DNA of 63,336 nucleotides, filler included, from Coriobacteriales bacterium (GTDB lineage: Bacteria > Actinomycetota > Coriobacteriia > Coriobacteriales > UBA8131): the NCBI GenBank assembly GCA_031263105.1. It is 6 parts of 6 records of this genome, joined end to end, with 100 filler letters (N's around TTAATTAATTAA, not from the genome) between each part and the next. Parts side by side here need not be neighbours in the genome. Positions count along the whole stretch, not along the records: positions 1 to 11,321 come from JAISGJ010000156.1; 5 more parts are not named here. The stretch is one strand, 5' to 3'. The translations under genes were made by a program, and so were the position numbers. The notes beneath the pieces were generated by a model. It ran no database searches and was not told where the DNA came from. It saw nothing but the letters and a program-made list of their open reading frames with translations. Shown here in pieces: positions 1-15,157 of the stretch. Every line of letters starts with the position of its first letter. The first letter of the stretch is position 1.

Positions 1-119
1 CTGGTAAGGAGGAAAGATGTCAGAGGGAAGAGTACCGTCAGAACTAACGCGTCGAAGTTTTCTGAAAACCACTGCAGTCGTAGCCGGAACTGCTGCCTTA
101 GCGGGCGGCTATGGGTGCA
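1..119. repeat. Left copy of a perfect 119-bp inverted repeat (RBS plus 34-codon Tat leader)
   Basis: 1-119 is the exact reverse complement of 11203-11321; identity stops at position 120. Confidence 0.97.
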
Positions 120-2455
120 GGGGGATCGAGCCGGAGGCAGAAAGCCCAGCAGCCGAAACCGAGACAACGGAAGTCTACTTCCAGAGCTGCATGGGAAACT
201 GCTCGGGTTGGGGCTGCCCCTGCTATGTGCATGTGCGTGAGGGGAAGGTCCGTAACATCAAAAAGGCGAACCTGGAGAGTCCTGACGGCAGCCTTGTGCC
301 CTATCAGGAGACCTGCATGAAAGGCTATGCGAACATCGAGCGCATGTACTCGGCGACGAGAGTGCAGTACCCCTTGAAGCGTGCGGGCGAGCGGGGGGCA
401 GGGGAATGGGAGAGAATCTCTTGGGACGAGGCCGTGAGCGAGATCTGCTCCAAGTGGAAAGAGCTGCAAGCGGAGCATGGGCCGGAGGCGGTCACCTTTA
501 TGTCCGGCTCGGGGAGCGGCATGGCGACCATCTCCTATACCAATCGGCTCAAGGCCCTTATGGGCGCTGCGACCATTGCGCCTGCCTACGACAACTCGGG
601 CATGTACTCGCAATGGACGCATGCTGGTTTCCACCCCATGGTGAACGGACAGAACGAGCACCGCGACATTGCGAACGCAGAGAACGTCTTCATATGGGGC
701 GCAAACCCCACTGAGTCGCTCACCACCGACTATCATTTCATCAGCGAGGCCCAAGAAAAGGGCGCGACCTTGGTGGTCATCGACCCCATCTTCACCACCT
801 CGGCATCGAAGGCCGATGTCTACGTGCCTATCCGCCCCGGCACCGACGGCCTGCTGGCAGCGGCTATGATGCAGATGGTCATACGCGACAACAAGGTGGA
901 CAAGGCGCATCTCCAAAACGCGACCGTGGCCCCCTTCCTGGTAAAAGACGAGGACGGGCTGTACCTGCGCCTGAGTGACGTCGGCAAGGCCGAGGCGGAA
1001 AGCGAGGAAGACCGAATCCTGGTTTACGACAACGGGGAGGCCGTTGCCTTCGACGAGGCGAGCGACCCCGAGATCGAGGGGAACTTCGAGGTCGAGGGCA
1101 TGGGCGTGAAGCCGGCCTATCAGATTCTCTTGGATCGCATATATGTGTGGGACCTCGAGACCATCGCCCAATACACCGACATCCCCCTTGAGACCATAGA
1201 AGAGCTTGCCGGTATCTATACCTCCGGCCTTTCCATGATTGTTACCGGATTCGGCATCGACCACTACGCGAACGCCCAGACCGGCTACGAGGCCATGTTC
1301 GCGCTCATGGACGTGACGGGACAGGAATGCAAGCATGGGGCCGGGTGCGCCTGCGTGGATTTCAGCTCCCCCACTGCGCAGGGTCTCGTCAACACGGCAA
1401 CGGCCGGGCTGGAAGACCTGGTGCCCGGACCTACCGTGCACGCGCCGCACCTGCATCAGCTCATGGAGGAAGGAAGGCTCGGGAGCATCACCGTCGCCCC
1501 GAAGTCCGCCTACATATACATCTGCAACCCCATCGGCAATGAACCCGACCGCCTCAAATGGCTTTCCTCGTTCGCGGCGATGGACATGGTTGTTGTCTCC
1601 GATATGTTCATGTCGGAGACCGCACAGTATGCCGACTACGTGCTTCCGGTTTCCTTCATTTTCGAGCGCGACGACCTCACTGCAGGTCAGAATCCCCTTG
1701 TGAAACTGGTGGACAAGGCCGCCGAGCCGGCCTTCGAGTCGAAGGGCGACTTCGAGATCATCACCCTTTTGGGCAAGGGCATGGGCTTCGAGGGGCAGTT
1801 CACCCAAACGCTCGAAGGGTTCTTGGAGTCCTGCATAACCAACGACACGGCCGCCGAGGCCGGCATCACATGGGAGCGCCTGAAAGAGGAGCATGCCATC
1901 TGGTCGTACCCAGAGGATCCGGTGGTGATCGGGCTCACCACCCCGCCCTTCACCGCAACCGGTCGCATGGAGTTCTATCATGAGGGCATCCAGCCCATGG
2001 CCGATGTCGGCCAGGAATGGGACATGAAAAAGGAGTCCTGCTGGTTCTGGGAGCCGCCCCTTGAGGCTTGGCACGAGAATCCTCTCTTCGAGCGGTTCCC
2101 CCTTATCTTTATCAGTGAGCGCGACAAGTTCAAGACGCATACCATGTTCAACAACGCACCCATGATCCTCGAGATATCCCCCGAGCCCTACGTCAAAGTC
2201 AATCCGTCGGATGCAGGGGCGCGTGGCATCAAGGAAGGCGACACGGTGCGCCTCTACAATGACCGCGGCTTCGTCACGCTCAAGGCCGTCCTCAATCCGG
2301 GATGCCGTCCGGGCATGCTCGTTATCGACCACGGCTGGGAGCGCGATAACTTCATCGACGGCCATTATTCGGACCTGTCGTCGTGTGCCTCTTGGCCTCG
2401 CTACGAGCAGGACAATTGGTTTGACTGCCTGTGCGAGATGGAGAAGGTCCAATAG
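17..2455 (+). CDS. Mo/W-bisPGD oxidoreductase catalytic subunit, DMSO reductase family, Tat-exported
   Basis: TRRSFLK Tat motif; N-terminal Fe-S cysteines CMGNCSGWGC...CMKG; WERISWDEA; IWGANP; C-terminal molybdopterin dinucleotide-binding region; RBS AAGGAGG. Confidence 0.95.
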   Translation: MSEGRVPSELTRRSFLKTTAVVAGTAALAGGYGCRGIEPEAESPAAETETTEVYFQSCMGNCSGWGCPCYVHVREGKVRNIKKANLESPDGSLVPYQETCMKGYANIERMYSATRVQYPLKRAGERGAGEWERISWDEAVSEICSKWKELQAEHGPEAVTFMSGSGSGMATISYTNRLKALMGAATIAPAYDNSGMYSQWTHAGFHPMVNGQNEHRDIANAENVFIWGANPTESLTTDYHFISEAQEKGATLVVIDPIFTTSASKADVYVPIRPGTDGLLAAAMMQMVIRDNKVDKAHLQNATVAPFLVKDEDGLYLRLSDVGKAEAESEEDRILVYDNGEAVAFDEASDPEIEGNFEVEGMGVKPAYQILLDRIYVWDLETIAQYTDIPLETIEELAGIYTSGLSMIVTGFGIDHYANAQTGYEAMFALMDVTGQECKHGAGCACVDFSSPTAQGLVNTATAGLEDLVPGPTVHAPHLHQLMEEGRLGSITVAPKSAYIYICNPIGNEPDRLKWLSSFAAMDMVVVSDMFMSETAQYADYVLPVSFIFERDDLTAGQNPLVKLVDKAAEPAFESKGDFEIITLLGKGMGFEGQFTQTLEGFLESCITNDTAAEAGITWERLKEEHAIWSYPEDPVVIGLTTPPFTATGRMEFYHEGIQPMADVGQEWDMKKESCWFWEPPLEAWHENPLFERFPLIFISERDKFKTHTMFNNAPMILEISPEPYVKVNPSDAGARGIKEGDTVRLYNDRGFVTLKAVLNPGCRPGMLVIDHGWERDNFIDGHYSDLSSCASWPRYEQDNWFDCLCEMEKVQ

Positions 2456-2472
2456 GAGGAAAGGACTCAATC

Positions 2473-3090
2473 ATGCAATATGGAATGGTTATCGACTTAA
2501 AGAAATGCATAGGCTGCCACTCGTGTGCGACCTCATGCAAATTGGCCAACAACCTGCCGATCGGCATCTGGTGGAACAAGGTGACCACCGAAGGCGGCAC
2601 GACAATCGACACCGCCGCAGGAAGCTACCCGAACTGCACGCTTCGGCACTATCCCATAGCGTGTCAGCACTGCAAGGCACCTGCGTGCGTCGCCGTCTGT
2701 CCGGTCGATGCGACCTACAAAGACGAGGAAACCGGACTCGTGGTTCAGGATAACGAGGCCTGCATCGGCTGCAAGATATGCATGGAGGCCTGTCCCTATG
2801 ACGCGCGGGTGTTCAACGGCGACAACCCTGCCTACACGCTTGACTTCGTCGTCGGGAACGAGAAGGTCGAGCCACATCTGGAAAACGTGGTCGAGAAATG
2901 CACGATGTGCCAAGCCCTGATCGAGGAAGGCGTCGAGCCCATGTGTGTTCAGGCATGTATCGGCTACGCGCGGCACTTCGGCGACCTGGACGACCCGGCC
3001 TCTGAGGTGTCCCAGCTCATTGCAGCCCGTGAGAACCTGCAACTTCTTGCGGAACAGGGCACCGGCCCGTCAGTCTACTACCTGAAGTGA
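2473..3090 (+). CDS. 4Fe-4S dicluster electron-transfer subunit (DmsB/NrfC-like)
   Basis: CIGCHSC, CQHCKAPACVAVCP, CIGCKICMEACP, KCTMC motifs; ATG at 2473 after AGGAGG. Confidence 0.95.
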   Translation: MQYGMVIDLKKCIGCHSCATSCKLANNLPIGIWWNKVTTEGGTTIDTAAGSYPNCTLRHYPIACQHCKAPACVAVCPVDATYKDEETGLVVQDNEACIGCKICMEACPYDARVFNGDNPAYTLDFVVGNEKVEPHLENVVEKCTMCQALIEEGVEPMCVQACIGYARHFGDLDDPASEVSQLIAARENLQLLAEQGTGPSVYYLK

Positions 3091-3133
3091 CTTTCTGAGC
3101 CTTGTGCCCACAAATAGGTTTGGGAAGGCTGCA

Positions 3134-3275
3134 CCACTGTCATTCCGAGCCTGCCGAGGAATCTTCGACCGCGCAAGCGGTCGACCGCAGGTCGAAGGGC
3201 CCCCTGACCTGCCGTTGGACACTGCGTGTCCAAAGATTCCCCGGCTTCGCTTCGCTGCGCTCGGAATGACAGTGG
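3134..3275. mobile_element. Palindromic miniature element (MITE/REP-like), copy 1
   Basis: CCACTGTCATTCCGAGC...GCTCGGAATGACAGTGG arms enclosing three internal hairpins. Confidence 0.85.
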
Positions 3276-3340
3276 AGGTTGGAGTGCAGGGTTGAAGCGA
3301 GCGACACTCCGAGCGCCTGCCTCCGAATGCTGCTAAGATA

Positions 3341-3385
3341 TTGACGTGAGGATTCTTTTGTCATATATTCATGTGACATTATGAC
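3341..3385 (+). promoter_or_regulatory. Putative sigma-70 promoter with overlapping TGTCA/TGACA motifs
   Basis: TTGACG(3341)-17 nt-TATATT(3364); TGTCA followed by two TGACA around the -10. Confidence 0.5.
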
Positions 3386-3433
3386 ACAGTGCTTTTTCGG
3401 GCTGCTCATCGAAGCGCGGTAAGGAGACTCGGT

Positions 3434-4138
3434 ATGCGACTGGCTGCTGGCGTTATCATAGCGATACTGATCGTTGCTGTCACAGGGCGCTTCATGAGGA
3501 AGGCGGCACCTGTCTTCTATCTGCTCGCCTTTGCTCTCGGTGTCTTCTTCATCTGCGGCACTTCGCTTGCGCTGCCCCCTTGGTTCAGAGAATATATCCT
3601 GTTCATCTTCCAGAGCAACAACCTCGCCATGGGTTTCTTCGCCATCGTCATGTTCGCCGGGGCTCTAGGAGAAAAGTCGTCACTGCGGAAGTTCCTGATG
3701 CCGATCCGTGCGGAGCTCTCCATCACCGCATCGATACTCTGCCTCGGCCATGTGGTCGTTTACGGACGTTCCTATCTTGCCCAGATCACGGGCTCCGCCC
3801 TCGCCATGCCCGGCGCGAGGCTGGTCGCCACCGTGGTGGCCTTCCTGCTTCTGGTGCTTTTGATCCCCTTGGCGCTGACATCGGTGCGGGCCGTCAAGGC
3901 ACGGATGAGACCGCAGACCTGGAAGAGCGTCCAGAAGCTCGCCTATGTGTTCTTCCTGCTCATATTCGTTCACATCTTCTTCTACCTCCTGCCGCCCGCG
4001 CTCGCAGGAAGCCTCGGCGCCGCAGTGAGCTTGGCGCTCTACAGTGCGCTTTTCCTTGTCTATCTGGTCCTTCGCATCCGCTTGGCCGCGCAGCACAGCG
4101 AGAGCTCCTTGACGGATACGGTCCAAGGAAGCGCCTGA
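3434..4138 (+). CDS. Ferric reductase-like (MsrQ/YedZ-type) heme-b membrane protein
   Basis: About six hydrophobic helices; PIRAELSI, LGHVVVY, PLALTS, WKSVQKLAY..LIFVH motifs; RBS AAGGAG at 3421. Confidence 0.8.
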   Translation: MRLAAGVIIAILIVAVTGRFMRKAAPVFYLLAFALGVFFICGTSLALPPWFREYILFIFQSNNLAMGFFAIVMFAGALGEKSSLRKFLMPIRAELSITASILCLGHVVVYGRSYLAQITGSALAMPGARLVATVVAFLLLVLLIPLALTSVRAVKARMRPQTWKSVQKLAYVFFLLIFVHIFFYLLPPALAGSLGAAVSLALYSALFLVYLVLRIRLAAQHSESSLTDTVQGSA

Positions 4139-4150
4139 GAGGTGCCCTGC

Positions 4151-4401
4151 GTTACACGTCACACCCCCACTGTCCGAACCCCACTGCCACCCCGAACCCC
4201 ACTGTCCGAGCCCCACTGTCCGAGCCCCACTGTCCGAGCCCCACTGTCCGAGTCCCACTGTCATTCCGAGCCTGTCGAGGAATCCTCGACCGCGCCAGCG
4301 GTCGACCGCAGGTCGAAGGGCCCTTCGACCTACCGTTGGACACTGCGTGTCCAAGGATTCCTCGGCGGGGCTCGGAATGACAGTGGGGTGTGACGTGTAA
4401 C
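4151..4401. mobile_element. Palindromic miniature element copy 2, complete, with 8-bp TSD
   Basis: Ends GTTACACGTCACACCCC / GGGGTGTGACGTGTAAC; TGCCCTGC at 4143-4150 and 4402-4409; tandem 14-bp CCCCACTGTCCGAG units in the left arm. Confidence 0.92.
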
Positions 4402-4466
4402 TGCCCTGCCCTTGCGGGTGTCGCGAGAGTGCCCGGTACTTGCTCTTCACAAGCTTGTCGTTTAGA

Positions 4467-4506
4467 ATATGGACTTACGAGTTAGTAACTTATGAGTCCA
4501 TATAAT
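4467..4506 (+). promoter_or_regulatory. Imperfect 37-bp palindrome overlapping a TATAAT -10 box
   Basis: ATATGGACTTACGAGTTA-G-TAACTTATGAGTCCATAT (15/18 complementary); TATAAT at 4501. Confidence 0.55.
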
Positions 4507-4521
4507 GGCAGGAGGATCCGG

Positions 4522-5958
4522 GTGTTCGTAGGAAGACAAAAGGAGATGGCTGCCCTCGGACGTCTCTACGCACGCGAGGACTTTCAGTTCGTCGTGATGT
4601 ATGGGCGCCGCCGGGTCGGCAAGACCACGCTTCTCAACGAATTCGTGAAAGACAAGCCCGCGTTGTTCTTCTCGGCACCTCAGCACGACGACGCAGGAGC
4701 GCTGCGTGTCTTTTCGGAGAGGCTGCACTCGTTCCTCGGACAGGGCGGCCTCTCTCCCTTTGCCACTTGGGCCGCTGCCTTCGAGCAATTGGCCAAGGCG
4801 GCGGAGGACAGGCGGTTCGTGCTGATAATCGACGAGTTCCCCTATCTGGCAAACGCCAACAGGTCGATACCCTCCCTACTGCAGAACGCCATCGACCGAC
4901 GCCTGAAAGACGGCAGGCTCTTCCTGGTGCTCTGTGGGTCGAGTCTGGGGTTCATGGAGCGTGGTGTGCTCAGCGCCAAAAGCCCTCTCTACGGTCGAGC
5001 GACGGCTCAGTTGCGCATCACGCCCTTTGACTTCGCGACGGCGGCAGACTTCTACCCGCAGTACCGCTTCGAGAGCAAGATGACGGCCTTCGGTGTGCTG
5101 GGCGGCATCCCTAAGTACCTCGAGACCTTCGTCGATACCGAACCCGTTGAGAACAACATCGTAGACCACATCCTGAACGACAGATCGTTGCTCTACGAGG
5201 AACCGATGAACTTCCTGCGCGAGGAGCTCCGTGAGCCGGCGACCTACAACGCCATCATCGAGGCGATAGCCGGCGGGGCGTCCAAGCTCAACGAGATAGC
5301 GACAAAGGCTGGCCTGCCTACGGACAAATGCGCCAAGTACCTGCGGACGCTCATCTCGCTCCATGTCGTCCAGCGGGAGATGCCGGTCATAGGACAGAAC
5401 AGGAAGAACGGCATCTACCGCATCTGTGATAACTTCTTCACCTTCTGGTACCGTTATGTCTTCGAGAATGCCGACATGGTCGAGCGCGGCGACGGCCAAG
5501 GCCTCTATGACCTGTTTGTGCGTCCGGATCTCGACAACTACATAGGCGCCACGGTGTTTGAAGGCATCTGTCAAGAGTATCTTTGGGGGCTCAACGCCCG
5601 TCGCAAGCTGCCCTTCGTCTTCTCAAGGGCGGGACGCTGGTGGGGCAACGACCCTCGGAGGCGAGAGCAGTCAGAGATCGATATAATCGCCTTCCACAAG
5701 CGACAGGCCTTGTTCTGTGAATGCAAGTGGAGAACGGAGAAGCTGGGGCTTGACGTGCTGGAGACGCTGCGGGAGCGAGCAGGCCTGTTTCCCGATTTTT
5801 CCGAGAAACACCTCTATCTGTTCTCTCGCTCCGGCTTCACCAAAGGGCTCAGAGATCACGTGTCGCAACTCGACAGCGCCGAGGTGACCTTGGTCGGACT
5901 TGAGGACCTGGAGAATGTGCTACTGGATACCGACGAGGGCAGCCAGCGTTCGACATAG
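4522..5958 (+). CDS. Archaeal-type P-loop ATPase with wHTH and C-terminal PD-(D/E)XK-like (DUF234) domain
   Basis: FVGRQKE start; Walker A GRRRVGKT; Walker B LIIDEFP; EIDIIA...CECKW; GTG start after AGGAGG. Confidence 0.88.
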   Translation: MFVGRQKEMAALGRLYAREDFQFVVMYGRRRVGKTTLLNEFVKDKPALFFSAPQHDDAGALRVFSERLHSFLGQGGLSPFATWAAAFEQLAKAAEDRRFVLIIDEFPYLANANRSIPSLLQNAIDRRLKDGRLFLVLCGSSLGFMERGVLSAKSPLYGRATAQLRITPFDFATAADFYPQYRFESKMTAFGVLGGIPKYLETFVDTEPVENNIVDHILNDRSLLYEEPMNFLREELREPATYNAIIEAIAGGASKLNEIATKAGLPTDKCAKYLRTLISLHVVQREMPVIGQNRKNGIYRICDNFFTFWYRYVFENADMVERGDGQGLYDLFVRPDLDNYIGATVFEGICQEYLWGLNARRKLPFVFSRAGRWWGNDPRRREQSEIDIIAFHKRQALFCECKWRTEKLGLDVLETLRERAGLFPDFSEKHLYLFSRSGFTKGLRDHVSQLDSAEVTLVGLEDLENVLLDTDEGSQRST

Positions 5959-6091
5959 GTGATGGGCGTCACCTCGGTCACCTCAAGCCGTCAGCTTTGA
6001 GATGGGGGCGACAAAGATGCCTTCACTGACACGCCAGGCAAAAGCCCATGGTGCCGACTCACACAAGCCGCCGCGTTTCTTGGCAGCATGT

Positions 6092-6544
6092 TCAACACGT
6101 GTGCGACGAATCGACAGAGGATTTGCGGCGGGCGAACATCGACCTTATCCATCTCCAGTGAACAACGACATGCACCAGCAGGAGCGCCAGCAGCACCTTG
6201 GCGCTGATCGAGTGCACGGGGTTCCAGAAGAAGTATCCCGGAGCGACCAGCCCGAGAAGCGGCAGAATGTGGCGTGAGACCATCAATCCTGATACCGTGA
6301 CGACCATAAACACCACCAAGGTGACCGCATCGAGCACCAGGTTCGCCGCCGATGCCCTGTCGGCGTGGCGGCGAACCGTGTTGCTGATCCCCTCGTAGTG
6401 CGCGGCACAGTGCACGACAAAGACGACAACGACGCCGAGGCCGAGCCATTCGTGGAGTGCCAGGCCGGTGACGGCAGGGTTTGCCGCGACGACATAGACG
6501 GCTGCTGCAACGAGGTCTATGACGAAGGTATGGCTGGGCCTCAT
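6092..6544 (-). CDS. Small membrane protein, DUF4405/cytochrome b-like
   Basis: Four hydrophobic helices with His residues (LHEWLG, VVHCAAH, PVHSIS, LVHVVVHW). Confidence 0.7.
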   Translation of the reverse strand: MRPSHTFVIDLVAAAVYVVAANPAVTGLALHEWLGLGVVVVFVVHCAAHYEGISNTVRRHADRASAANLVLDAVTLVVFMVVTVSGLMVSRHILPLLGLVAPGYFFWNPVHSISAKVLLALLLVHVVVHWRWIRSMFARRKSSVDSSHTC

Positions 6545-6547
6545 ATG

Positions 6548-6916
6548 CTAGAGCTTCCTCACCATGGCAACCAGGACAAGCACGAGCACGACCGGTGCCA
6601 GTATCCACAGGTTCATACTGGCATCGGACGGCTTGGAGCGTGTTGTCTCTATGCGGCTCCATGCGTGACAGTCGGTCTCGGAGCAGCCTTTGACTCTGGG
6701 GCATTCCATCGTTAACGTGCCGTTGGGCACCGGCGCAGGCCCGGCCGCATGGCAGGAGGCGTCGGGTTGGGTGCAGCCGGCCACCGGGCAGGGCGTCTCT
6801 GCGCGTATCGTCTGCGGCAGCGCAACGGTCTCCTTGTCGCTTGCCCACCCCGCCAGGAAGGTCAGGATGCCGAGAAGCACGAACAGGACGAACGTGACCA
6901 GCAGCTTCTTCGGCAT
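6548..6916 (-). CDS. Small Cys-rich protein with N- and C-terminal TM helices
   Basis: MPKKLLVTFVLF start; two CP-x2/3-GC-x4/6-CH repeats; operonic spacing with neighbours. Confidence 0.7.
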   Translation of the reverse strand: MPKKLLVTFVLFVLLGILTFLAGWASDKETVALPQTIRAETPCPVAGCTQPDASCHAAGPAPVPNGTLTMECPRVKGCSETDCHAWSRIETTRSKPSDASMNLWILAPVVLVLVLVAMVRKL

Positions 6917-6930
6917 CCTTGGCGCCTCAA

Positions 6931-8190
6931 TTATGACGCAGATACAGGGGGCGGAGAGACGCCCTGTCGTCGTCCTTCCGTCTGCCCCAACGGCAGGAGC
7001 CTCAAACCCAGAAGCAGCAGGAGCGCCCCCAGTCCGAACACGCCTGCGGCCACGCCGAGCTCCAGCGGCGAAGGGATGTAGACAAGGGCCGGGCCGACCG
7101 AGGCGAGGGCGGCGCCAGCATCCGTGAGCGGAGGCCCGCTCGTGACGGTGGGGTAGGCGATGTTGGGTGTCTGGAAGCCCCCGACAAGCAGCTGGACGCG
7201 CTTGCAGAGGATGGCGAGGACAGAAAGCGCGGCGGCGGCGGCGATGAGCGGTGCGGTGCGGAGGCGAGGAGTGAAGGCCACGAGCATCGCAAAGACGCCC
7301 GCCAGCACCTCGCACCAGAAGAAGGGCGCGAGAGGACCGGACGTGAGCAGCGCCACGATGCTGGCGCCCTCAGCGCCGGGGAAGCCCGAGGTGAGGAGGT
7401 CGCAGCCGAAGAAGTACAGATCGACGGCCGTGAACACGCCGAGGAGTCTGGCCATCTTCGTGATATCCGCTTGCTCGAGCGCGAGGCGCCCTGCCTTCCT
7501 GAGCGCCAATGCCATGAGAAGCACCAGCGCCAGACCCGACACCAAGGCCGAGGACACGAACCACGGGCCGAGAAGCGCCGTGTGCCAAAGCTCGTGAGCC
7601 TGCAAAAGCCCGAATATCCAAGCGGTGACGGTGTGCACCATGACGGCGCAGACGAGCGCCACGGCGGAGAGCGCACGCAACGCCTTCTGCGACACCCTCC
7701 CGGCCTCGGCGCGGATCGTCGCCCACAGATAGACGACCGAGACGACGAGGTAGGACGTCAGCACGATGATGTCCCACATCAGAGGCGAGGTCATGTTGGC
7801 GTATGCCGCCAGTTCCCAGAGACGCAGCGGCCCGCCCAGATCCACCACCACGAAGGCGACGGCGAGCACCGTGCAGCAGATGGAGCACCATATGGCCACC
7901 TTGGATATGCCCCCGAAGCCCTTGATGCCGAAGACCTTGGGAACAGACGATATGATGAGCCCGCCCGCCGACAGTCCCACGAACAGCATGAAGAGGATGA
8001 TGTATATCCCCCAACTGTCGAGGTTCCTCATGTTGGTGTTGACGAGGCCGGACGTGGACTGGAACACCCAAAGACCGATGCCTGCCACCGTGACGGCAGC
8101 GCACACCACGATGGCGACGAGCTGTGCCCTCGATCGGGAAGCGGCCGTCACGGCCGCTCCTTCGGCTGCCGTTGCTCTCTTCTCACTCAT
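6931..8190 (-). CDS. NrfD/PsrC-family membrane anchor
   Basis: WGIYIILFMLFVGLSAGG, DLGGPLR, SPLMWD, VHTVTAWIF; multiple TM helices. Confidence 0.92.
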   Translation of the reverse strand: MSEKRATAAEGAAVTAASRSRAQLVAIVVCAAVTVAGIGLWVFQSTSGLVNTNMRNLDSWGIYIILFMLFVGLSAGGLIISSVPKVFGIKGFGGISKVAIWCSICCTVLAVAFVVVDLGGPLRLWELAAYANMTSPLMWDIIVLTSYLVVSVVYLWATIRAEAGRVSQKALRALSAVALVCAVMVHTVTAWIFGLLQAHELWHTALLGPWFVSSALVSGLALVLLMALALRKAGRLALEQADITKMARLLGVFTAVDLYFFGCDLLTSGFPGAEGASIVALLTSGPLAPFFWCEVLAGVFAMLVAFTPRLRTAPLIAAAAALSVLAILCKRVQLLVGGFQTPNIAYPTVTSGPPLTDAGAALASVGPALVYIPSPLELGVAAGVFGLGALLLLLGLRLLPLGQTEGRRQGVSPPPVSAS

Positions 8191-8204
8191 GGTCGTTTCC
8201 TCCC

Positions 8205-8828
8205 TTACACCAAGTAGTAGACGGACGGCCCCGTGCCCATCTCGGGCAGGAGCTGCTTATGTTCACGCCTTGCGACCAGCTGCGACACCTCGGAGCCGGG
8301 GTCGTCAAGGTCACCGAAGAAGCGGGCGCGCCCCACGCAGGCCTCGACGCACTTGGGCATCTCGCCCTTTGCGATAAGGTTCGCGCACATCGTGCATTTC
8401 TCGACGGTGTGCTTCTGGTGCGGCAGCGCGTCAGGGTCGCCGACCGCGAAGTCGAGGTGGTACGTGGGCTCCTCCCAGTTGAAGCTCCTCACCCCCGTGT
8501 AGGGGCACGCGGCGATGCACATGCGGCAGCCGATGCACTTGTCGTAGTCCTGATAGACGATGCCGTCCTCTTCGCGCTTATAGGTTGCCTCCACGGGACA
8601 GACCTTGGTGCAGGCGGGGTTCTCGCAATGCTGACAGGCGAGGGGCGTGTGCTGCATGCCGAGGTTGTTCGGGTACAGGCCACCCGCCGTGTCGATGGCC
8701 TCGCCTCCGACGGTCATGACCCGGTTCCACCAGTTGCCGGCCGGCAGGTTGTTCGAGAGCCTGCAGGACGTCGCGCAGGCGTGGCAGCCAAGGCAGCGCT
8801 TGAGGTCAATTGCCATTCCGTATTGCAT
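8205..8828 (-). CDS. 4Fe-4S dicluster electron-transfer subunit (DmsB/NrfC-like)
   Basis: CLGCHAC, CQHCENPACTKVCP, CIGCRMCIAACPY, KCTMC; paralog of 2473-3090. Confidence 0.95.
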   Translation of the reverse strand: MQYGMAIDLKRCLGCHACATSCRLSNNLPAGNWWNRVMTVGGEAIDTAGGLYPNNLGMQHTPLACQHCENPACTKVCPVEATYKREEDGIVYQDYDKCIGCRMCIAACPYTGVRSFNWEEPTYHLDFAVGDPDALPHQKHTVEKCTMCANLIAKGEMPKCVEACVGRARFFGDLDDPGSEVSQLVARREHKQLLPEMGTGPSVYYLV

Positions 8829-8836
8829 GATTCCTC

Positions 8837-11305
8837 CTATCCGACCTTCTCGACCTGACAAAGACAATCGAACCAAGCGGGGCCGGGAAGCGCAATGCTG
8901 ACCGTGCGGGAGCTGAGGTCGGAGTAATGGCCCTCGATGAACTGGTTCTGTTGCCAGCCATGGTCTATGACGATGACCCCTGGGCGCACCCCGGGATTGA
9001 CCACTGCCTTTATCACGACATAGCCCCTGTCGTTGAAGACCCTGACCGTATCCCCTGTCTTGATGCCCCTTGATTCGGCATCGGTGCTGCTCACCTTTAT
9101 GTAGGGTTCGGGGTCTATCTCCAGAAGCGTGGGGGTATAGGTGAACATGGTATGGGTCTTGAACTTCGAGCGCTCCGACATAAAGACGAGCGGGAACTGC
9201 CCGAACTTCTCGTTCTCGTACCAGGCCTCGTTCGGCGGCTCCCAGTAAGGCAGGCTCTCTCGCTTGGCGTCCCAGGGCTTTCCCGCCTGCACCAAAGGCG
9301 CGTTGTCCTCCAGGTAGAACTGGAGACGCCCCGTTGGGGTCGACAGGCCGTTAAGCCCATGGACGAACCCGTTGGGGGGATTCGCCCAGAGGCGCTTTTC
9401 CTCCTTGAGGCCCTCCCATGAGACCCCAAGGCCTCGCGCGAGGTCGTTGTCGAGGCTGTTCTCCAAGTACTCCTCGACCGTTGCCTGGAACTCCCCTTCA
9501 AAGCCCATTCCTCGACCGAGCAGCGTGATGATGTCGAAATCGCTCTTTGACTCGAACTGGGGCGGCACTGCCTGCTCCTGAAGTCTTATGTACGGATTGC
9601 CGAAAGACGCCTGTATCGACTCGACCTCAAAGATAAAGGCGACGGGGAGGACAATATCGGCATAGTTCGCGGTCTCGCTCATCCATATGTCCGAGACCAC
9701 CACCAGGTCGAGTGCCTCAAGGGCCTCAAGGGTCTTTTTCCTCTCGGTCATGTTCCCTAACATGTTATGGCAGTAAAAGTAGATGCTCCTGATCTGCGGC
9801 TGGTAGTCGCCGATGCCGTCGCCAAGAACCGCGTCGTAAAAATAGGGAGGCCAGACCCCGGGGCCGGGCTTCGTGTCTGCGGGAGCCGTATAGAACGAGG
9901 TGTCGGTGCCCAGGGACATCGGCAGGGACATATCGACGACTGAGATGCCCCTGCCTGACTCCAAGAACTGGCCCGTTATCTGCAAAAGGGTCAGGATGTT
10001 GCCGTAGCCGGTGATCCCGTTGACGTAATGATCCATGCCGAATCCCGCCACCACGGTCGTGCGACCGGCAACAAATTGCTGGACCAGCCATTCTATCGTC
10101 TCGAGTGACACCCCGGTCCTCTCCACGATCTGCTCGAACGTGTGCTCGTTCAGGCGTTCGAGCAAAAGGCTGTAGGCGGTTGTCACCTTGATGCCCTCGA
10201 TGGTAAAGCTGCCCTCGATCAGCGGGTCGGATATCGTGTCGGCAGCGCCGGTCGATCCGTCAGCGCCACGCACGCAGATCGGGTCGCTTGCGGGCGACGA
10301 GGCGGCTGCCTGCGCGGCATCGGCATCGGCATCGGGGGAGGTGACAGGGGTCTCTTCTCCCAAATCGCTCAAACGCAGGTAACGACCGTCCTTCTCCTTC
10401 ACCAAGAAAGGGGCGACCGTCTTTTCTGTAAGGAAGGGGGTGTTCTGTAGCTCGTCGCGCAGGATTATCTGCATCATACCGATTGCGAGCAGCGCATCGG
10501 TGCCCGGTCGTATGGAGATAAAACGGTCTGCCTTTGACGCGGTGGTCGTGAAGATGGGATCGATCACGATCAGCTGAGCCCCGTTCTCCTGGGCCTCGGT
10601 GATGTGATGGAAGTCGATCATGCCCGCCTCGGAGGGGTTGGCCGCCCAGGCAATGATCGTGTCTGCGTTGGCGAGCTCCTTGAACGCATTGCCGGCATAA
10701 CAGGCACCCGAGCCGATATATTTGGGGACAGTCATGAAGCCGTTGAAGTCATAGGATGCGCCCATGGTTCCCGCCCCCATAAAGCTCCTCAGCCTCTCAG
10801 CGTAATCGCAGGTAATGCCCCCGTTTCCCGTTCCTTTTGAGAAGAATATGCTGTCCTTGCCCGACTCGTCCTGATAGGTTTTCCACTTAGTGGTTATCTC
10901 GTCTATGGCCTCGTCCCAACCGATCTGCTCCCACTCCCCGGCGCCTCTTGCACCAACGCGCCGCAGGGGATACTTGACACGGTAGGTCGAGTACATCCTC
11001 TCAATGTTCGTATAGCCTTTGACGCAGACATGCTCGCGCCAGGGCACGCCTTTGTATTTGCGCATATTGACGACATTGCCGTCTCTGACGAAGATGTCCA
11101 TGGGGCAGCCCCAACCATGACAGTTCCCAGCACAACTCGACGCAAATACCGCTTCCTCGGCCCTGCTCTCCGCCGCACGTTGCCCGTCCGCCCCTGCTCT
11201 TATGCACCCATAGCCGCCCGCTAAGGCAGCAGTTCCGGCTACGACTGCAGTGGTTTTCAGAAAACTTCGACGCGTTAGTTCTGACGGTACTCTTCCCTCT
11301 GACAT
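8837..11305 (-). CDS. Second Mo/W-bisPGD oxidoreductase catalytic subunit, Tat-exported
   Basis: First 34 aa identical to 17-2455, then diverged; CAGNCHGWGC...CVKG; WEQIGWDEA; C-terminal dinucleotide-binding region. Confidence 0.95.
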   Translation of the reverse strand: MSEGRVPSELTRRSFLKTTAVVAGTAALAGGYGCIRAGADGQRAAESRAEEAVFASSCAGNCHGWGCPMDIFVRDGNVVNMRKYKGVPWREHVCVKGYTNIERMYSTYRVKYPLRRVGARGAGEWEQIGWDEAIDEITTKWKTYQDESGKDSIFFSKGTGNGGITCDYAERLRSFMGAGTMGASYDFNGFMTVPKYIGSGACYAGNAFKELANADTIIAWAANPSEAGMIDFHHITEAQENGAQLIVIDPIFTTTASKADRFISIRPGTDALLAIGMMQIILRDELQNTPFLTEKTVAPFLVKEKDGRYLRLSDLGEETPVTSPDADADAAQAAASSPASDPICVRGADGSTGAADTISDPLIEGSFTIEGIKVTTAYSLLLERLNEHTFEQIVERTGVSLETIEWLVQQFVAGRTTVVAGFGMDHYVNGITGYGNILTLLQITGQFLESGRGISVVDMSLPMSLGTDTSFYTAPADTKPGPGVWPPYFYDAVLGDGIGDYQPQIRSIYFYCHNMLGNMTERKKTLEALEALDLVVVSDIWMSETANYADIVLPVAFIFEVESIQASFGNPYIRLQEQAVPPQFESKSDFDIITLLGRGMGFEGEFQATVEEYLENSLDNDLARGLGVSWEGLKEEKRLWANPPNGFVHGLNGLSTPTGRLQFYLEDNAPLVQAGKPWDAKRESLPYWEPPNEAWYENEKFGQFPLVFMSERSKFKTHTMFTYTPTLLEIDPEPYIKVSSTDAESRGIKTGDTVRVFNDRGYVVIKAVVNPGVRPGVIVIDHGWQQNQFIEGHYSDLSSRTVSIALPGPAWFDCLCQVEKVG

Positions 11306-11321
11306 CTTTCCTCCTTACCAG
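11203..11321. repeat. Right copy of the 119-bp inverted repeat
   Basis: Exact reverse complement of 1-119; ends at the contig end. Confidence 0.97.
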
Positions 11322-11421
11322 NNNNNNNNNNNNNNNNNNNNNNNNNNNNNNNNNNNNNNNNNNNNTTAATTAATTAANNNNNNNNNNNNNNNNNNNNNNN
11401 NNNNNNNNNNNNNNNNNNNNN
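11322..11421. other. Artificial contig spacer
   Basis: N44-TTAATTAATTAA-N44. Confidence 0.99.
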
Positions 11422-11423
11422 TG

Positions 11424-11492
11424 GCGAATAACATCAAATCGGTACCGCTGTATGCCGCTTTCTGCCTGGCTGATGGTCAGGGCAGTGCATGA
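11424..11492 (+). CDS. 3' end of a probable AAA/DUF4143-type protein (partial)
   Basis: Reads ANNIKSVPLYAAFCLADGQGSA*, similar to the NVPLFAV end of 12928-14229. Confidence 0.4.
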   Translation, partial: ANNIKSVPLYAAFCLADGQGSA

Positions 11493-11651
11493 AAGCCGAA
11501 AACCTGTCCAGCGAACCAATCCGGCCTGCTGCTGTCGCGCTCGCCGACAATGGAGACAGGGTTGTTTTCTTTCACGCTGACAGTGGAAAAGGGACGCGTG
11601 TCAGGGGGACGCGCGTGTCAGGGGGACGTAAAACTTGACAGGTCAAACTTA

Positions 11652-12510
11652 GGTCCTGTCGTCAATAGATTCAAGCCCAGATGGCCAGGCAGCGTATCTG
11701 CACGGCAGCCAGAAACGACGACAGCCTCTTGGCGTAGCGGGTGGCTATGCCGCGCCAGCGCTTGAGTTCGCAGAAGGCGTTTTCCACCAGGTGGCGACAC
11801 CGGTAGAGTTCTTTATCGCAATCACGCTGCACCTTGCGGTTTCTCTTGGGCGGGATGACCGCCTCCATGCCCTGCGCCTTGGCAGCAGCAACAATGGCAT
11901 CGGTGTCATAACCCCTGTCGGCAAGCAGCGCCGAGGCATCCAGCCCCTCTATCAGCTTTTCTCCGTATGAGCAATCGGCCTCGGTGCCTGCTGTGATAAA
12001 CATTCTGACCGGCACGCCATGCGCATCCACGGCAAGATGTATCTTTGAGCTGGGCCCCCTTTTGTAAGGCCCATGCCCTCGTTGCCCCCGACAGCGCCCG
12101 TGGCGTGCTGGTGGACCTTGACGTGGCTGGCGTCTATCATGAGCCACTCCACGTCAGGCACATCCACAAGCAGCCCCAAAAGCCGTTTCCAGTCCCCTCC
12201 GTCCCGCCATCGGCAGAACCTGCGGTGGACGTTCTTCCAATCCCCGTAATCCGGCGGCAAATCTCGCCAGGGCGCCCCGGTGCGCAGTATCCAAAAGACG
12301 GCGTTTATGAATCTGCGATTGTCCTGTGCATTGCCGCCCCAGGTGCCCTTGCGTCCCTTCAGGTGCGGTTCGAGTTTTTCCCAGAGTTGGTCTGAGATGT
12401 CATGGCGACGGTAGTCTTCTGTCATGAGAGTCCCCTTTTGCTGCGGTTCTGGTGTATTCGTGGACTTTCTCATTGTAGCATACTATGCTATTACTATTGA
12501 CGACAGCACC
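11652..12510 (-). mobile_element. IS5-family insertion sequence (IS427-like), 859 bp
   Basis: TIRs GGTCCTGTCGTCAATAG / CTATTGACGACAGCACC (1 mismatch); TA on both sides; two overlapping transposase ORFs. Confidence 0.92.
11671..12425 (-). CDS. IS5-family transposase split into orfA/orfB by a probable programmed frameshift
   Basis: orfA has ILRTGAPWRDLP..YGDWKNVHRRF and MIDAS; orfB has KIHLAVDAHG, LLADRGYD, RHLVENAF..LK.WR.IATRYAK; AAAAGGGGG near 12055-12063 on the minus strand. Confidence 0.9.
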
Positions 12511-12927
12511 TAGGAAGCGTCGGACTGCTCGCATTCGGGGTCTTTTTTATAACTGCGGGAAGTGGCGACCTCCTCGTCATCTATGCCTTACGGAATGAGC
12601 GACGGGACGCTTTGGTCGAGGACCACCCTTCAGAAGTCGGTTATTTTGTCTATAGGCCTGTCGAAAGCCCTCATTGACCGAAGGGCGCCAAGTATATGCG
12701 CTATCGCGACGTGCGGGACCTGCGTTGGCTTTCGGTGCATCCGCAGTTTTACGGGAACTGATGGCGAAGAAGATAGCGATCTATCCGTACGCTGAGTAGA
12801 TGAGCAGAGCTGGCTTAAAATGCGTGAACTACATCCTCAATATCGCCAAATATGTTCATTTTACGTCCTTAGTTTCTCCATTTTAGGCTAAAATGTGGAC
12901 ATGATGTAGTGGACGAAAGGGTGTGCC

Positions 12928-14229
12928 ATGGAACGCCACGTAATGCAAAAACTTGTTGGCTGGAAGGGCAGCCGTCGTAAGAAACCGCTTATTATCAATG
13001 GGGCTCGCCAGGTTGGCAAAACGTGGTTACTCAAGGAATTCGGTGCGCGCCACTTTGACAACGTTGCCTATATCAATTTCGACAACAATGCAGCAATGCG
13101 CTTATTGTTTGACGAGGGCTATGACACCACCCGACTTCTAACAGGAATACAGGCAGAAGCCGAAGAGCGCATCATTGAGGGCGAGACGCTCATCATCTTT
13201 GATGAAATACAAGAGTGCCCCAAAGCGCTTACTTCACTTAAATATTTCAGCGAGAATACTCCGAGCCAGTTGATTGTTGCAGCCGGATCGCTCCTTGGTC
13301 TTGCTGTTCACCAGGGAACAGGCTATCCCGTTGGCAAGGTGACGACACTTGATCTGTTTCCTTTGAGCTTCCGTGAATTTCTTGATGCGACAGGCAACCA
13401 GTCACTGCGTGAGCTTATCGACTCCAATGACGTTTCTGTTATTTCCTCGTTTTCTGCAAAGCTCGTCCCGCTTCTGCGCCAGTATTATTTCACAGGCGGA
13501 ATGCCGGAAGTGGTAGCAGCATTTACCGAGAGCAACCTGGTAACGGATGCGCGTGAGGTTCAGAACCAAATTCTTTCGGACTATCGCCGTGACATCTCAA
13601 AGCATCTTACGGTCTCTGAGGCTGAACACACCCTTGCCACATGGGACTCAATACCTGCCCACCTGGGACAGGAGAACAGAAAATTTATATTCGGCCATAT
13701 CAAAGAGGGCTCTCGTGCGCGTGACTATCGTAGTGCTATCACATGGCTGGTCGAAGCCGGACTTGCTGTACGTGTGCGTCGCATTACAAAGCCGGGGATT
13801 CCCCTCGTAGCATATGCTGGCGAGTCATCGTTTAAGCTCTTTTTGCTTGATATTGGGCTACTCGGCGCGATGGCAGGACTCGACGCAAGCAGCGTAATAA
13901 GCGGAAACAGAATGTTCGCGGAATTTAAGGGTGCTTTAACAGAGCAATACGTCTGCCAACAGCTTGTATCTGATTGCGGCCTACAGCCTTTCTACTGGTC
14001 GGCCGAGAACTCTCGTGGTGAAATCGATTTTCTTGTCCAAAACGAAAGTCGAATCTACCCCATCGAAGTCAAAGCTGAAGAGAACTTGCGCTCAAAGAGC
14101 TTGCGCGCCTTCAACGAAAAATATAGGGGCATGAAGCCGCGTCGCTTCTCACTTTCAGGCTACCGAGACGAAGGATGGATGTGCAACGTGCCCCTCTTTG
14201 CGGTTGGTGACATAAAAAACTGGGAGTAA
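12928..14229 (+). CDS. AAA_14-type ATP-binding protein with C-terminal DUF4143 domain
   Basis: GARQVGKT; IIFDEIQ; TGGMPE; EIDF...PIEVK; lower GC than flanking genes. Confidence 0.9.
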   Translation: MERHVMQKLVGWKGSRRKKPLIINGARQVGKTWLLKEFGARHFDNVAYINFDNNAAMRLLFDEGYDTTRLLTGIQAEAEERIIEGETLIIFDEIQECPKALTSLKYFSENTPSQLIVAAGSLLGLAVHQGTGYPVGKVTTLDLFPLSFREFLDATGNQSLRELIDSNDVSVISSFSAKLVPLLRQYYFTGGMPEVVAAFTESNLVTDAREVQNQILSDYRRDISKHLTVSEAEHTLATWDSIPAHLGQENRKFIFGHIKEGSRARDYRSAITWLVEAGLAVRVRRITKPGIPLVAYAGESSFKLFLLDIGLLGAMAGLDASSVISGNRMFAEFKGALTEQYVCQQLVSDCGLQPFYWSAENSRGEIDFLVQNESRIYPIEVKAEENLRSKSLRAFNEKYRGMKPRRFSLSGYRDEGWMCNVPLFAVGDIKNWE

Positions 14230-14339
14230 CGCTATGGCAGTTTGAAGTTGTCAAGGGGACGTTGTCAAGGCTACTGCTGGCCGGAGGGGACAAATCCTCC
14301 GGACAAATCCTCCCAGCACAAGCATTAATCATCGTCTCC

Positions 14340-14712
14340 CTAGAGTTCACCGATGTAGGCTTTGGCGTTTCTGGCGGCGTTGCGCCCGGAATTGACGTTG
14401 TTTCCCATATTGGAGCCGGGCATGTTCTGGGTGTAGACGTTCTTGTGCATCATCGCACCGTCAAGTCCAGCGGAGTAAAGACCCGGAATAGCCGTCAGGG
14501 TCTCATCGAGCACCTCGGCGCGGATGTTGGTCATGATGCCGCCGATGACGACCACGAAGAGCGGCACCATCTTGGCCATGTAGTAGGGCGTGTTGGTCAA
14601 AGGCACCATGAACTGCGAGTCCTTGCCAAAGTCAAGGTCGCTGCCGTCTGCACAATACGAGTTGTAACGGTCAACGGTTGCAACAAAGGTCTCGACATCA
14701 AGCGCCTGTCCT
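14340..14712 (-). pseudogene. C-terminal remnant of a flavocytochrome c / FAD_binding_2 oxidoreductase
   Basis: ATVDRYN...DLDFGK...PYY...IGGIMTN...VLD...IPGLYSAG...NSGRNAA with no N-terminal FAD-binding part. Confidence 0.75.
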
Positions 14713-14901
14713 CCGAGCAGTTTTCTTTGGTAATGAGCCGCCTGTCTTCCAAGGAAGCGAGGATTGCCGCACGGTCTTCTCGGCAAGAATCAGATAGTCG
14801 GTCAGTGGCGCCAACAAGACGGGGGCATCGGCTTCATGGAGCGCGAGCAGCAAGGTGGCCTTGACAGCCCTTGCGTGATAAGGGGATACAGAGTCTGTCA
14901 C
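14690..14901 (-). pseudogene. Possible frameshifted MarR-like winged-helix remnant
   Basis: LLLALHEADAPVLLAPLTDYLILAEKTVR continues in another frame as AILASLEDRRLITKENCSEDRR. Confidence 0.35.
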
Positions 14902-14944
14902 AACAGTCTTACATTTCTGCGACGCCTCAACCGCTATAAAACCG

Positions 14945-15157
14945 CTATAAGCAGGCGCGGTCGAGGTTCTTAGCTTCTTTCAGCGCCTCCCGCTCGGCAG
15001 GGGTAAGCTCCCGTCTGACGGACACCGTCTTTGGCACTGCGGGAGAGAGGGCCTGCTCATAGCTCTCCCTGATCGCCTCCTTGATGTTGCCGGGGGTGCC
15101 GGGTACGATCTGTCCCCTGACATTCAGCATATAGGCTTCACTTCTCATAACCGCCAC
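14945..15157 (-). CDS. Small hypothetical protein
   Basis: 70-aa ORF with GAGAGG near the start; no motif recognised. Confidence 0.35.
   Translation of the reverse strand: MAVMRSEAYMLNVRGQIVPGTPGNIKEAIRESYEQALSPAVPKTVSVRRELTPAEREALKEAKNLDRACL

Follow-up and report, generated by a model that had tools for sequence, protein, structure and literature searches.

A metagenome-assembled genome (MAG) of the Eggerthellaceae from a termite gut carries two convergent, different operons of the DMSO reductase family that probably take turns at a single translational start and export leader. We favor, at a probability of roughly 55%, an explanation in which a shufflon-like inversion at a 21-bp inverted repeat, located at the end of a signal peptide, swaps the operon that is fused to a single expression site. 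In this termite-gut host, the expression site would be made up of an as yet unseen upstream region, an RBS, an ATG and a Tat signal peptide. Beside it would lie an invertible segment of 11.1 kb (positions 99-11223), with the 21-bp inverted repeat, which codes for the final residues of the signal peptide, at its two borders, and the cargo of this segment would be the two complete operons. In one orientation, operon A would be fused in frame to the leader while operon B would face a leaderless flank, consisting of 36 nt and then a repeat element. After a flip, operon B would be fused to the leader and operon A would become the silent copy. Both orientations would be present in the sampled population, and an assembler working at k=119 would have lost the leaderless flank, so that the single leader node came to stand at both contig ends as a 119-nt repeat.

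Results

Two convergent operons of the DMSO reductase family

The window, by which we mean the whole 63,336-nt stretch of DNA that was analyzed, is composed of six contigs with five spacers of the form N44-TTAATTAATTAA-N44 between them, the first of these artificial spacers lying at 11322..11421. Positions 1-11321 are one whole contig of the MAG. On this contig, as an earlier note on the same DNA had stated, both operons point inward, with gene A on the plus strand and gene B on the minus strand. Gene A (17..2455, plus strand) encodes a catalytic subunit of 812 aa and gene B (8837..11305, minus strand) one of 822 aa. PF00384 and PF01568 score above their cut-offs in both, placing them in the DMSO reductase family, and both genes are intact and full length against their relatives. 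The relatives found in the PDB are enzymes of the type II DMSO reductase family, ethylbenzene dehydrogenase and thiosulfate reductase. For both proteins, all NCBIfam matches stayed far below their cut-offs, the best being TIGR03479 with 310-312 bits versus a required 984.75. In both proteins, PF10518 recognizes a Tat signal at residues 10-29, scoring 24.3 bits where 22.7 are required, and the motif reads TRRSFLK. The N-terminal 4Fe-4S domain PF04879 (FS0) scores 31.5 bits in B; it was not found in A at E<=0.001, where a CMGNCSGWGCPC cluster can be seen by eye.

Each catalytic gene is followed by a gene for a 4Fe-4S electron-transfer subunit, which in operon A lies at 2473..3090 (plus strand; start taken at MQYGM after AGGAGGA) and in operon B at 8205..8828 (minus strand). 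An NrfD-type membrane anchor (6931..8190, minus strand; PF03916, E 1.2e-43) is encoded in operon B only. Translation of the remainder of operon B gives a Cys-rich protein of 122 aa with hydrophobic stretches at both termini (6548..6916, minus strand) and, at the operon's tail, a 150-aa membrane protein (6092..6544, minus strand; translation read by eye). Operon A could have a membrane partner of its own, judging from the sequence, in a 234-aa membrane protein (3434..4138, plus strand) that has a weak MsrQ/ferric-reductase-like match (E 2e-6, below cut-off) and a promoter-like site upstream of it at 3341-3369. Operon A consists of a catalytic subunit, an FeS subunit and perhaps this membrane protein; operon B has, besides its catalytic and FeS subunits, the NrfD anchor and a pair of small membrane proteins. 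An ATPase_2 and DUF234 protein (4492..5958, plus strand), which by domain scan is not a recombinase, is encoded midway along the segment.

A 119-nt inverted repeat at the contig ends

The two ends of the contig are exact reverse complements of each other: positions 1-119 and 11203-11321 are 100% complementary over 119 nt and lie 11083 nt apart. Within the repeat are AAGGAGG at 6-12, an ATG at 17 and 34 codons (MSEGRV...GGYGC) plus one base, which bears out the earlier claim of an exact inverted repeat covering an RBS and 34 codons of a Tat leader. That claim had further placed the end of identity right after the signal-peptide Cys and had called the two mature enzymes clearly diverged, and both points held. 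Identity between gene A and gene B ends at 119/120, which is 34 codons plus one base. Beyond this boundary, the genes share 58.5% DNA identity over 2491 aligned columns, with a longest common run of 15 nt, and the proteins are identical at 410 of 830 positions (49%). A terminal inverted repeat of this kind occurs in one of the six contigs of the window, the other five having 0-3 nt.

The length of this repeat is also a possible assembler k value, and the earlier note had raised the idea that both ends are one graph node. The k=31 contigs of a sequencing run and a simulation, both described below, back this idea, and the 119-nt identity is probably a k=119 graph node, derived from one leader and printed at both contig ends. 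The leader portion outside the 21-nt core at the left end (1..98, plus strand) contains the RBS (6-12), the ATG (17), the twin-arginine motif SELTRRSFLK and the h-region, with its PF10518 match. In our reading it is a single physical expression site, external to the invertible segment. Its reverse complement, as printed at the right contig end (11224..11321, minus strand), we read as an assembly-graph duplicate of 1-98 and not as a second physical copy. The real inverted repeat would be the last 21 nt only (99-119 and 11203-11223).

The left copy of this core (99..119, plus strand), a proposed recombination site, encodes the signal-peptide end (L)AGGYGC plus one base. The right copy (11203..11223, minus strand) is inverted, and its outer border is the position at which one of the run contigs, record 7, ends. 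The borders of the core were set by the divergence of A and B at 119/120 together with the run-contig borders at 99 and 11223. The core has two matches in the window, versus 0.01 expected by chance, and none elsewhere in the window; both copies are in frame inside coding sequence, at codons 28-34 of their own gene. The 21 bp are the identity observed, and we propose them as a candidate recombination site. A search for the core 21-mer in metagenome_contigs returned 0 stretches; a protein search had given no JGI relative of gene A above 67%, so nothing closer was to be expected there.

Contig borders and depths in the sequencing run

Our read-level evidence comes from the assembled contigs of one run (X1), which may be the source of the MAG; it therefore provides independence from the assembler but draws on the same sample. 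Its contigs overlap by 30 nt at 3134-3163 and at 7187-7216, fitting k=31, and their depth along the segment is 21.3-26.5. The leader contig (record 8, 291 nt) consists of leader positions 1-119 and 172 nt upstream of them, at a depth of 23.8. Two copies should give about double, so this similarity to the depth of the segment argues for a single copy, with the depth being a mean per contig and a rough measure of copy number only. Record 1, on the gene A side, starts at 99, and record 7, on the gene B side, ends at 11223, and both overlap the leader record by 21 nt, not 30. This shorter overlap suggests that A and B each have a second upstream neighbor, which diverges from the leader exactly at 98/99.

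One such neighbor can be seen in a contig of depth 24.4, in which a copy of the repeat element (matching up to 3282) and 36 other letters are joined to position 99, a joint given by one row whose matched side is possibly just 21-30 nt. Read by eye, the 36-letter flank has an in-frame TGA nine codons upstream of the core Leu codon, followed by ...VKSNHRQ and then LAGGYGC. It has no ATG, one GTG and no RR motif, and the repeat element lies beyond it. This flank was seen only beside 99, and we infer its presence beside gene B from the border at 11223. When up to 3 mismatches were allowed, a 22-letter piece of it had no match anywhere in the window, so the flank lies on none of the other five contigs.

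The repeat element itself is MITE-like and palindromic. Copy 1 (3135..3274) has 16-nt terminal inverted repeats (CACTGTCATTCCGAGC), and copy 2 (4256..4385) is preceded by a 14-nt tandem array at 4165-4262. The end motif of the element has 35 matches in the window, other contigs of the window end in arrays of the element, and bin depths in run X1 are 3794 (copy 1) and 4110. Because the element that adjoins the leaderless flank is so highly repeated, it offers a reason why the flank was lost in assembly. We assume that this loss came about when the assembler pruned its graph.

Both the leader-A and the leader-B junction are present in the MAG contig, each backed by 119 nt of leader. Since a de Bruijn assembler needs words that span a junction to print it, such words existed for both. 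We simulated the competing arrangements and compared the resulting borders with those of run X1. One leader, one other flank and both orientations together gave k=31 unitig borders as in the run: the leader unitig runs from the upstream flank to 119, A starts from 99, B from the core, and the core is also where the other flank ends. With two leader copies of 119 nt, A instead began at 90 and the 119-nt leader formed a unitig of its own, and one fixed orientation gave no break at all. At k=119, the one-leader model reproduced 1-11321 to the base when the edges crossing the other flank were taken out, and gave 99-11223 when they were kept. A single-copy leader and a leaderless flank would together imply two orientations, and the simulation agrees. 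The run contigs and the simulation therefore favor the earlier proposal, in which flipping decides which operon lies downstream of a single external promoter and leader, whereas the inverted repeat of two physical 119-nt leaders in that proposal does not fit the single-copy depth of 23.8 and the borders at 99 and 11223. The pattern would be explained by inversion, presumably driven by a site-specific recombinase.

Relatives of the two operons and the search for a recombinase

The best relative of gene A outside the contig has about 75% identity, and the best relatives of gene B have 54-55% and all possess their own leaders, in searches that scored 2 candidates per genome and were not systematic for leaderless copies. 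None of the three closest A loci (76, 74 and 71% identity) has a convergent B-like operon downstream of A and its FeS gene, within 20 kb in two of them and within 11.5 kb in the third, whose contig ends at that point. The leader DNA was found in 0 of 2 relative genomes and is absent from the 339 genomes of the family set, except for weak partial matches in 6 of them (73-83% identity over 36-104 nt). Of its 34 residues, the leader has 16-24 in common with five of six B-like relatives (13 with the sixth, which is more distant) and 12-23 with the 22 closest A-like relatives. Several candidates for leaderless copies, namely P0001 (740 aa), P0038 (754 aa), P0039, P0041 and P0124, were rejected as short database gene calls. 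Two of them, from this very contig, start internally despite an in-frame leader, so calls of this kind prove nothing.

The earlier note had seen no recombinase in the contig, and a domain search agrees: none was found in its 10 ORFs, nor in the 43 ORFs of the other five contigs, in which one IS4/5 transposase fragment was the only related find. A recombinase gene could lie in the flanks of the segment, beyond the end of the contig.

Alternative explanations

The same contigs could derive from two very close lineages that differ by a one-off inversion between the 21-nt identities, with no ongoing enzyme-driven switching. We consider such a fixed strain difference unlikely. It is in keeping with run contigs that show both arrangements to exist, not cells switching, with the lack of a recombinase in the 10 and 43 ORFs, and with the presence of the sequence in one sample only. 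Yet the run contigs hold a single base variant over 11.3 kb, which lies inside the repeat element, so that they show no split at the SNP level, with the caveat that rare variants are lost from contigs. A gene of 2.4 kb that never had a leader should moreover decay, yet A and B are both intact, and a core that sits in frame exactly at the signal-peptide end, opposite a leaderless flank, looks designed rather than accidental.

An improbable alternative takes the contig at face value, with a leader at each end. Here the promoter-proximal region, RBS and leader would have been duplicated, or gene-converted from one paralog to the other, to form an inverted repeat of at least 119 nt, and the segment would be either fixed or flipping by homologous recombination. 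A k=119 graph yields the identical contig under this model, and the slightly greater closeness of the leader to the B-like clade (16-24 versus 12-23 of 34 residues) fits a conversion of A by B. The k=31 data are harder to reconcile with it, as the leader contig has a depth of 23.8 although it runs 172 nt past the 119, the A and B contigs reach only 21 nt into the leader where 30 nt would be expected, position 99 is also joined to leaderless sequence by a contig of single-copy depth, and the simulated borders differ, with A beginning at 90 and the leader forming a 119-nt unitig. The alternative offered in the earlier note, a promoter and leader that were recently duplicated or gene-converted, is a less likely rival. 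Highly improbable, in our view, is an artifact in which the second neighbor belongs to a different organism or to a third paralog, or is a chance match beside a repeat element, one leader junction is a rare chimera and nothing inverts. Short-sided joints in metagenomes do often stem from repeats or other organisms, and three joints beside the repeat element (4390->7227, 4401->7662 and 4401->10309, with sides of 20-22 nt) look like chance. The joint in question, however, falls exactly on 99, the base where records 1 and 7 independently end, the depth of the joining contig (24.4) is the depth of this genome, and both leader junctions survived pruning with 119 nt of support each.

Discussion

Most known programmed inversions concern surface structures, the specificity of restriction systems or the tail fibers of phages, and the Eggerthellaceae are home to large, poorly understood expansions of molybdoenzymes. 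If inversion at a single expression site is the right reading, it would extend phase variation to core energy metabolism, with whole respiratory or catabolic operons placed behind one Tat leader, and it would mean that the invariant portion of a shufflon can be a signal peptide. More tentatively, and at somewhat less than even odds, a recombinase acting in trans on a 21-bp site in the Tat c-region could generate clonal populations of A-exporting and B-exporting cells, a form of bet-hedging that would concern electron acceptors or aromatic substrates instead of surface antigens. The case may also be instructive for assembly. Contig ends that are exactly reverse complementary over length k can mark an invertible segment beside a single-copy site, and standard assembly and binning would hide the second flank of such a segment and print a misleading long inverted repeat in its place.

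Comparison with known inversion systems

Our literature searches found no report that joins inverton with molybdopterin, DNA inversion with the DMSO reductase family, or shufflon with twin-arginine. The R64 Rci/PilV shufflon, the phage Mu Gin and P1 Cin tail fiber systems and the Moraxella Piv pilins all swap protein C-termini. They resemble the arrangement proposed here in that a constant 5' part is joined in frame to alternative 3' parts at short inverted repeats. Shufflons, however, exchange the variable C-terminus of one structural protein, whereas here nearly the whole enzyme and its partner genes would be exchanged and the signal peptide would be the constant part. In the sap S-layer system of Campylobacter fetus, every paralog has a long conserved 5' region, these homologous regions lie in inverted orientation, and RecA-dependent inversion changes the expressed paralog. 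That system resembles an anatomy with two leaders; the evidence here points to a single leader and a 21-bp site.

Intragenic invertons have reportedly been described by Chanin and colleagues in 2024. With these and with the catalogued inversions, our case would have in common inverted repeats inside coding sequence and alternative alleles in one population. Gene-altering programmed inversions have been catalogued across bacteria, with enrichment for families such as restriction-modification specificity subunits, SusC/D, pilins and tail fibers (Milman et al. 2023, PMC9881135). The main text of that catalogue nowhere contains the terms 'molybd', 'signal peptide' or 'Tat', and no such switch of a respiratory or metabolic enzyme is listed. 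A precedent comes from the same family as our host: Eggerthella lenta has reversible inversions with a 16-bp inverted repeat and no recombinase gene at the breakpoints, and both forms occur within cultures, according to sections of a preprint (PMC13131767). Short identical inverted repeats, with no recombinase gene seen beside them, occur in our case as well. As those sections present them, the E. lenta inversions are megabase-scale, concern capsule loci and are not described as in-frame fusions (PMC13131767). A resemblance by eye between the E. lenta 16-mer and our core, with a 2-nt gap, was set aside as chance, there being no match to the 16-mer in the window with up to 3 mismatches.

The vsa locus of Mycoplasma pulmonis and the vpma locus of M. 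agalactiae share with our model one expression site and in-frame fusion by inversion at a short site in the coding region. At vsa, recombination takes place immediately downstream of the lipoprotein signal peptide, through a dedicated recombinase, HvsR. As outlined in portions of the published account, one expression site gives the promoter and the amino-terminal coding DNA, and silent genes without a functional 5' end are fused to it by inversion at a short coding-region site (PMC4534519). The cargo at vsa and vpma consists of surface lipoprotein antigens with tandem repeats, in many cassettes and with a recombinase nearby. In contrast, the cargo here would be two whole multi-gene respiratory operons on an 11-kb segment, with no recombinase found in the contigs, behind a Tat rather than a Sec or lipoprotein leader, in an actinobacterial host.

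Two convergent molybdoenzyme operons with an identical leader sequence

Ten runs of 44 N in the window form five artificial N44-TTAATTAATTAA-N44 spacers (11322-11421, 21496-21595, 30835-30934, 49289-49388 and 58669-58768). The window is a set of six separate contigs (1-11321, 11422-21495, 21596-30834, 30935-49288, 49389-58668 and 58769-63336), and adjacent ones need not be neighbors in the genome. The inverted-repeat finding therefore spans one whole contig, 1-11321, the only one of the six with a terminal inverted repeat. As an earlier note had claimed, 1-119 is the exact reverse complement of 11203-11321, and 11083 nt separate the two. The repeated leader comprises a ribosome binding site (RBS), AAGGAGG, and a Tat signal peptide: its ATG is at 17, and the repeat takes in 34 codons (MSEGRVPSELTRRSFLKTTAVVAGTAALAGGYGC) and one further base. 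Past position 119, identity ends at once, also as claimed: the DNA of the two genes behind the leader is 58.5% identical over 2491 columns, with a longest common run of 15 nt, and their proteins are 49% identical (410 of 830 positions).

These genes, A (17-2455, plus strand) and B (8837-11305, minus strand), each encode molybdopterin oxidoreductase and MGD-binding domains with a Tat signal. Both are intact, a state of the sequence that fits continued use of both. A 4Fe-4S subunit gene follows A and another follows B; beyond its own, operon B also encodes an NrfD anchor, a Cys-rich protein of 122 aa and a membrane protein of 150 aa. Between the operons lie an ATPase_2/DUF234 gene and two palindromic element copies around a gene for a membrane protein of 234 aa that weakly resembles MsrQ. 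The relatives with solved structures are type II DMSO reductase family enzymes, ethylbenzene dehydrogenase, acetylene hydratase and thiosulfate reductase. NCBIfam matches all fall far short of their cut-offs, so the substrates of A and B are not assignable. The protein database calls for A and B begin at internal codons 73 and 69 (P0001, 740 aa, and P0038, 754 aa), and both records are without the shared leader. Redox enzymes are plentiful in the bin apart from A and B: on the other contigs are two molybdoenzyme sets of the xanthine dehydrogenase family (MoCoBD, FAD_binding_5, Fer2_2), at 25578-29154 and 33838-37516, and a fumarate-reductase-like flavoprotein at 18297-21151. The fourth contig ends in a perfect tandem repeat (49159-49288; period 32, 4.1 copies, 100% matches). 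This repeat is situated at the 3' end of an open frame of 999 aa (46290-49288), which has no Pfam match and contains further repeats of 69/138 nt and 222 nt.

Metagenome contigs break at a 21-nt core within the leader

The only public run with the stretch is a termite gut metagenome, run X1 (0.98 of 1056 sampled words), which may be the source of the MAG. The evidence comes from this single sample, probably that of the MAG itself, and from assembled contigs rather than reads, with depth a mean value per contig. When aligned to contig 1-11321, the run X1 contigs overlap by 30 nt at 3134-3163 and 7187-7216, which fits k=31. The leader lies in a 291-nt record that holds 1-119 and 172 nt more upstream, at depth 23.8; records of the segment between have depths of 26.5, 21.3, 24.1, 22.8, 21.8 and 24.8. 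The first of these begins at 99 and the last stops at 11223, overlapping the leader record by 21 nt rather than the 30 nt seen elsewhere, and the ends of the stretch are crossed by one record only. These 21 nt form a core at 99-119 (plus) and 11203-11223 (minus), with 2 matches in the window against 0.01 expected. A further contig of depth 24.4 contains a repeat-element copy, which matches as far as 3282, followed by 36 other letters that lead into position 99. Read by eye in the core's frame, this leaderless flank runs ...TGA-D-V-K-S-N-H-R-Q-L, without an ATG or a twin-arginine motif. The corresponding flank-B junction is deduced from the border at 11223.

We computed k=31 unitigs for three models built from contig 1-11321 and random flanks. 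In the model that had a single leader, a second flank and the segment in both orientations, the leader unitig extended upstream into its flank and stopped at 119. A began at 99 and B with the core, which was also where the other flank ended, and four 39-nt junction unitigs appeared. This model matches the run X1 contigs. Two 119-nt leader copies gave an isolated 119-nt leader unitig with A from 90, a mismatch with run X1, and one leader in one fixed orientation gave no break at the leader whatsoever. At k=119, where the edges are words of length k+1, the both-orientation model yields 99-11223 when all edges are kept and exactly 1-11321, including the 119-nt terminal inverted repeat, when the other-flank edges are removed. 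A k=119 assembler would thus output this contig for one leader node joined to both segment ends; the earlier note's remark about k=119 was correct. Assemblers prune low-depth paths beside very deep ones. The other flank lies about 44 nt from a copy of the repeat element, whose bins reach depths of 3794 and 4110 when the genome is at about 24, and we infer that this adjoining deep repeat caused its loss.

A candidate invertible segment

Both leader junctions are real, since each has 119 nt of leader in the contig, and depth and borders indicate that the leader occurs once per genome. Some genomes would therefore carry leader-A and flank-B, and others leader-B and flank-A. The best explanation, to which we give a probability of about 0.55, is that 99-11223 inverts between the two inverted core copies, swapping the operon fused to a single leader. 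Because the core encodes the end of the signal peptide, each orientation would join one enzyme in frame to the single RBS, start codon and Tat leader and leave the other gene without all three. Homologous recombination usually needs more than 21 bp of identity, so a site-specific recombinase would be the likely agent; as the earlier note had it, no recombinase domain was found in the contig (10 ORFs scanned), nor did 43 ORFs of the other five contigs show one.

A fixed inversion difference between two close lineages, with no switching, would leave the same junctions. We consider this less likely; over 11.3 kb the run X1 contigs list a single base variant, which lies within the repeat element, and this mildly favors a clonal population. 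Two physical leader copies would account for the terminal repeat as assembled, but the leader depth of 23.8, the 21-nt overlaps and the mismatched k=31 borders make this quite improbable. The earlier note's switch is thus favored by depth, borders and simulation, whereas its two-copy 119-nt repeat is not. Least credible is an artefact: a chance match beside the repeat element can occur in principle, and three other joints there, with sides of 20-22 nt, are listed as possible examples, yet a chance match ending at 99, on the same base as two other records, is very unlikely.

Repeat elements and other joints

The palindromic element is MITE-like, about 130-140 nt long with 16-nt terminal inverted repeats (CACTGTCATTCCGAGC). 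This end sequence matches at 35 places in the window, where 0.05 would be expected. Copies include 3135-3274, 4256-4385, 15387-15526, 30570-30771, 41479-41623 and 58819-58958. Tandem arrays of 14-19-nt units derived from element ends often accompany it, and some contigs end within them (21322-21493, 30767-30829, 58769-58823). The copies in 3135-4385, on both sides of the 234-aa membrane protein gene, are 92% alike over 112 nt, and that gene has its own promoter-like site at 3341-3369. One run X1 contig (depth 23.3) joins 3278 to 4370, skipping 1091 nt, and may come from a variant that lacks the gene or from a solo element at another site. Another (depth 23.8, shorter side 47 nt) links 2761 with 8556, on opposite strands. 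The two sites are homologous, each lying near residue 107-110 in the ferredoxin motif of its FeS subunit; this contig could be a third paralog or a hybrid formed by recombination between the two FeS genes. Among protein domains of mobile elements, the window showed just one, an IS4/5-family transposase fragment (DUF4096) at 11952-12473.

Origin of the leader and comparison with known systems

Gene A's closest relatives are from Eggerthellaceae and Coriobacteriales MAGs. The best relatives reach at most 75-76% identity to A and 55% to B, and the three closest A loci have no convergent partner in 11.5-20 kb downstream. Apart from six weak partial matches, the leader was not found in 339 family genomes, nor was the core in metagenome_contigs. 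The leader starts MSE... and ends ...GGYGC. The 22 closest A-like relatives have 12-23 of its 34 residues in common and mostly end in LAGC; among B-like relatives the counts are 24 (P0033), 22 (P0027 and P0028), 18 (P0123), 16 (P0029) and 13 in the more distant P0050, with two of the six leaders ending ...FGC. These sequences weakly hint that the expression site arrived together with B and that A became attached to it by recruitment.

Shufflons resemble this arrangement, as do the Gin, Cin and Piv systems. We found no paper combining inversion terms with molybdoenzyme or Tat terms, and the main text of the Milman et al. catalogue of gene-altering inversions contains 'molybd', 'signal peptide' and 'Tat' 0 times (PMC9881135). 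Reversible inversions at a 16-bp flanking repeat, with no recombinase adjacent, are described in an Eggerthella lenta preprint (PMC13131767); this 16-mer has no match in the window. The closest known logic is that of the Mycoplasma pulmonis vsa locus, where one expression site gives the promoter and amino-terminal coding DNA and site-specific inversion joins it to silent genes (PMC4534519). If real, the arrangement described here would be a shufflon-type switch in which the constant part is a Tat signal peptide and the cassettes are whole respiratory enzyme operons.
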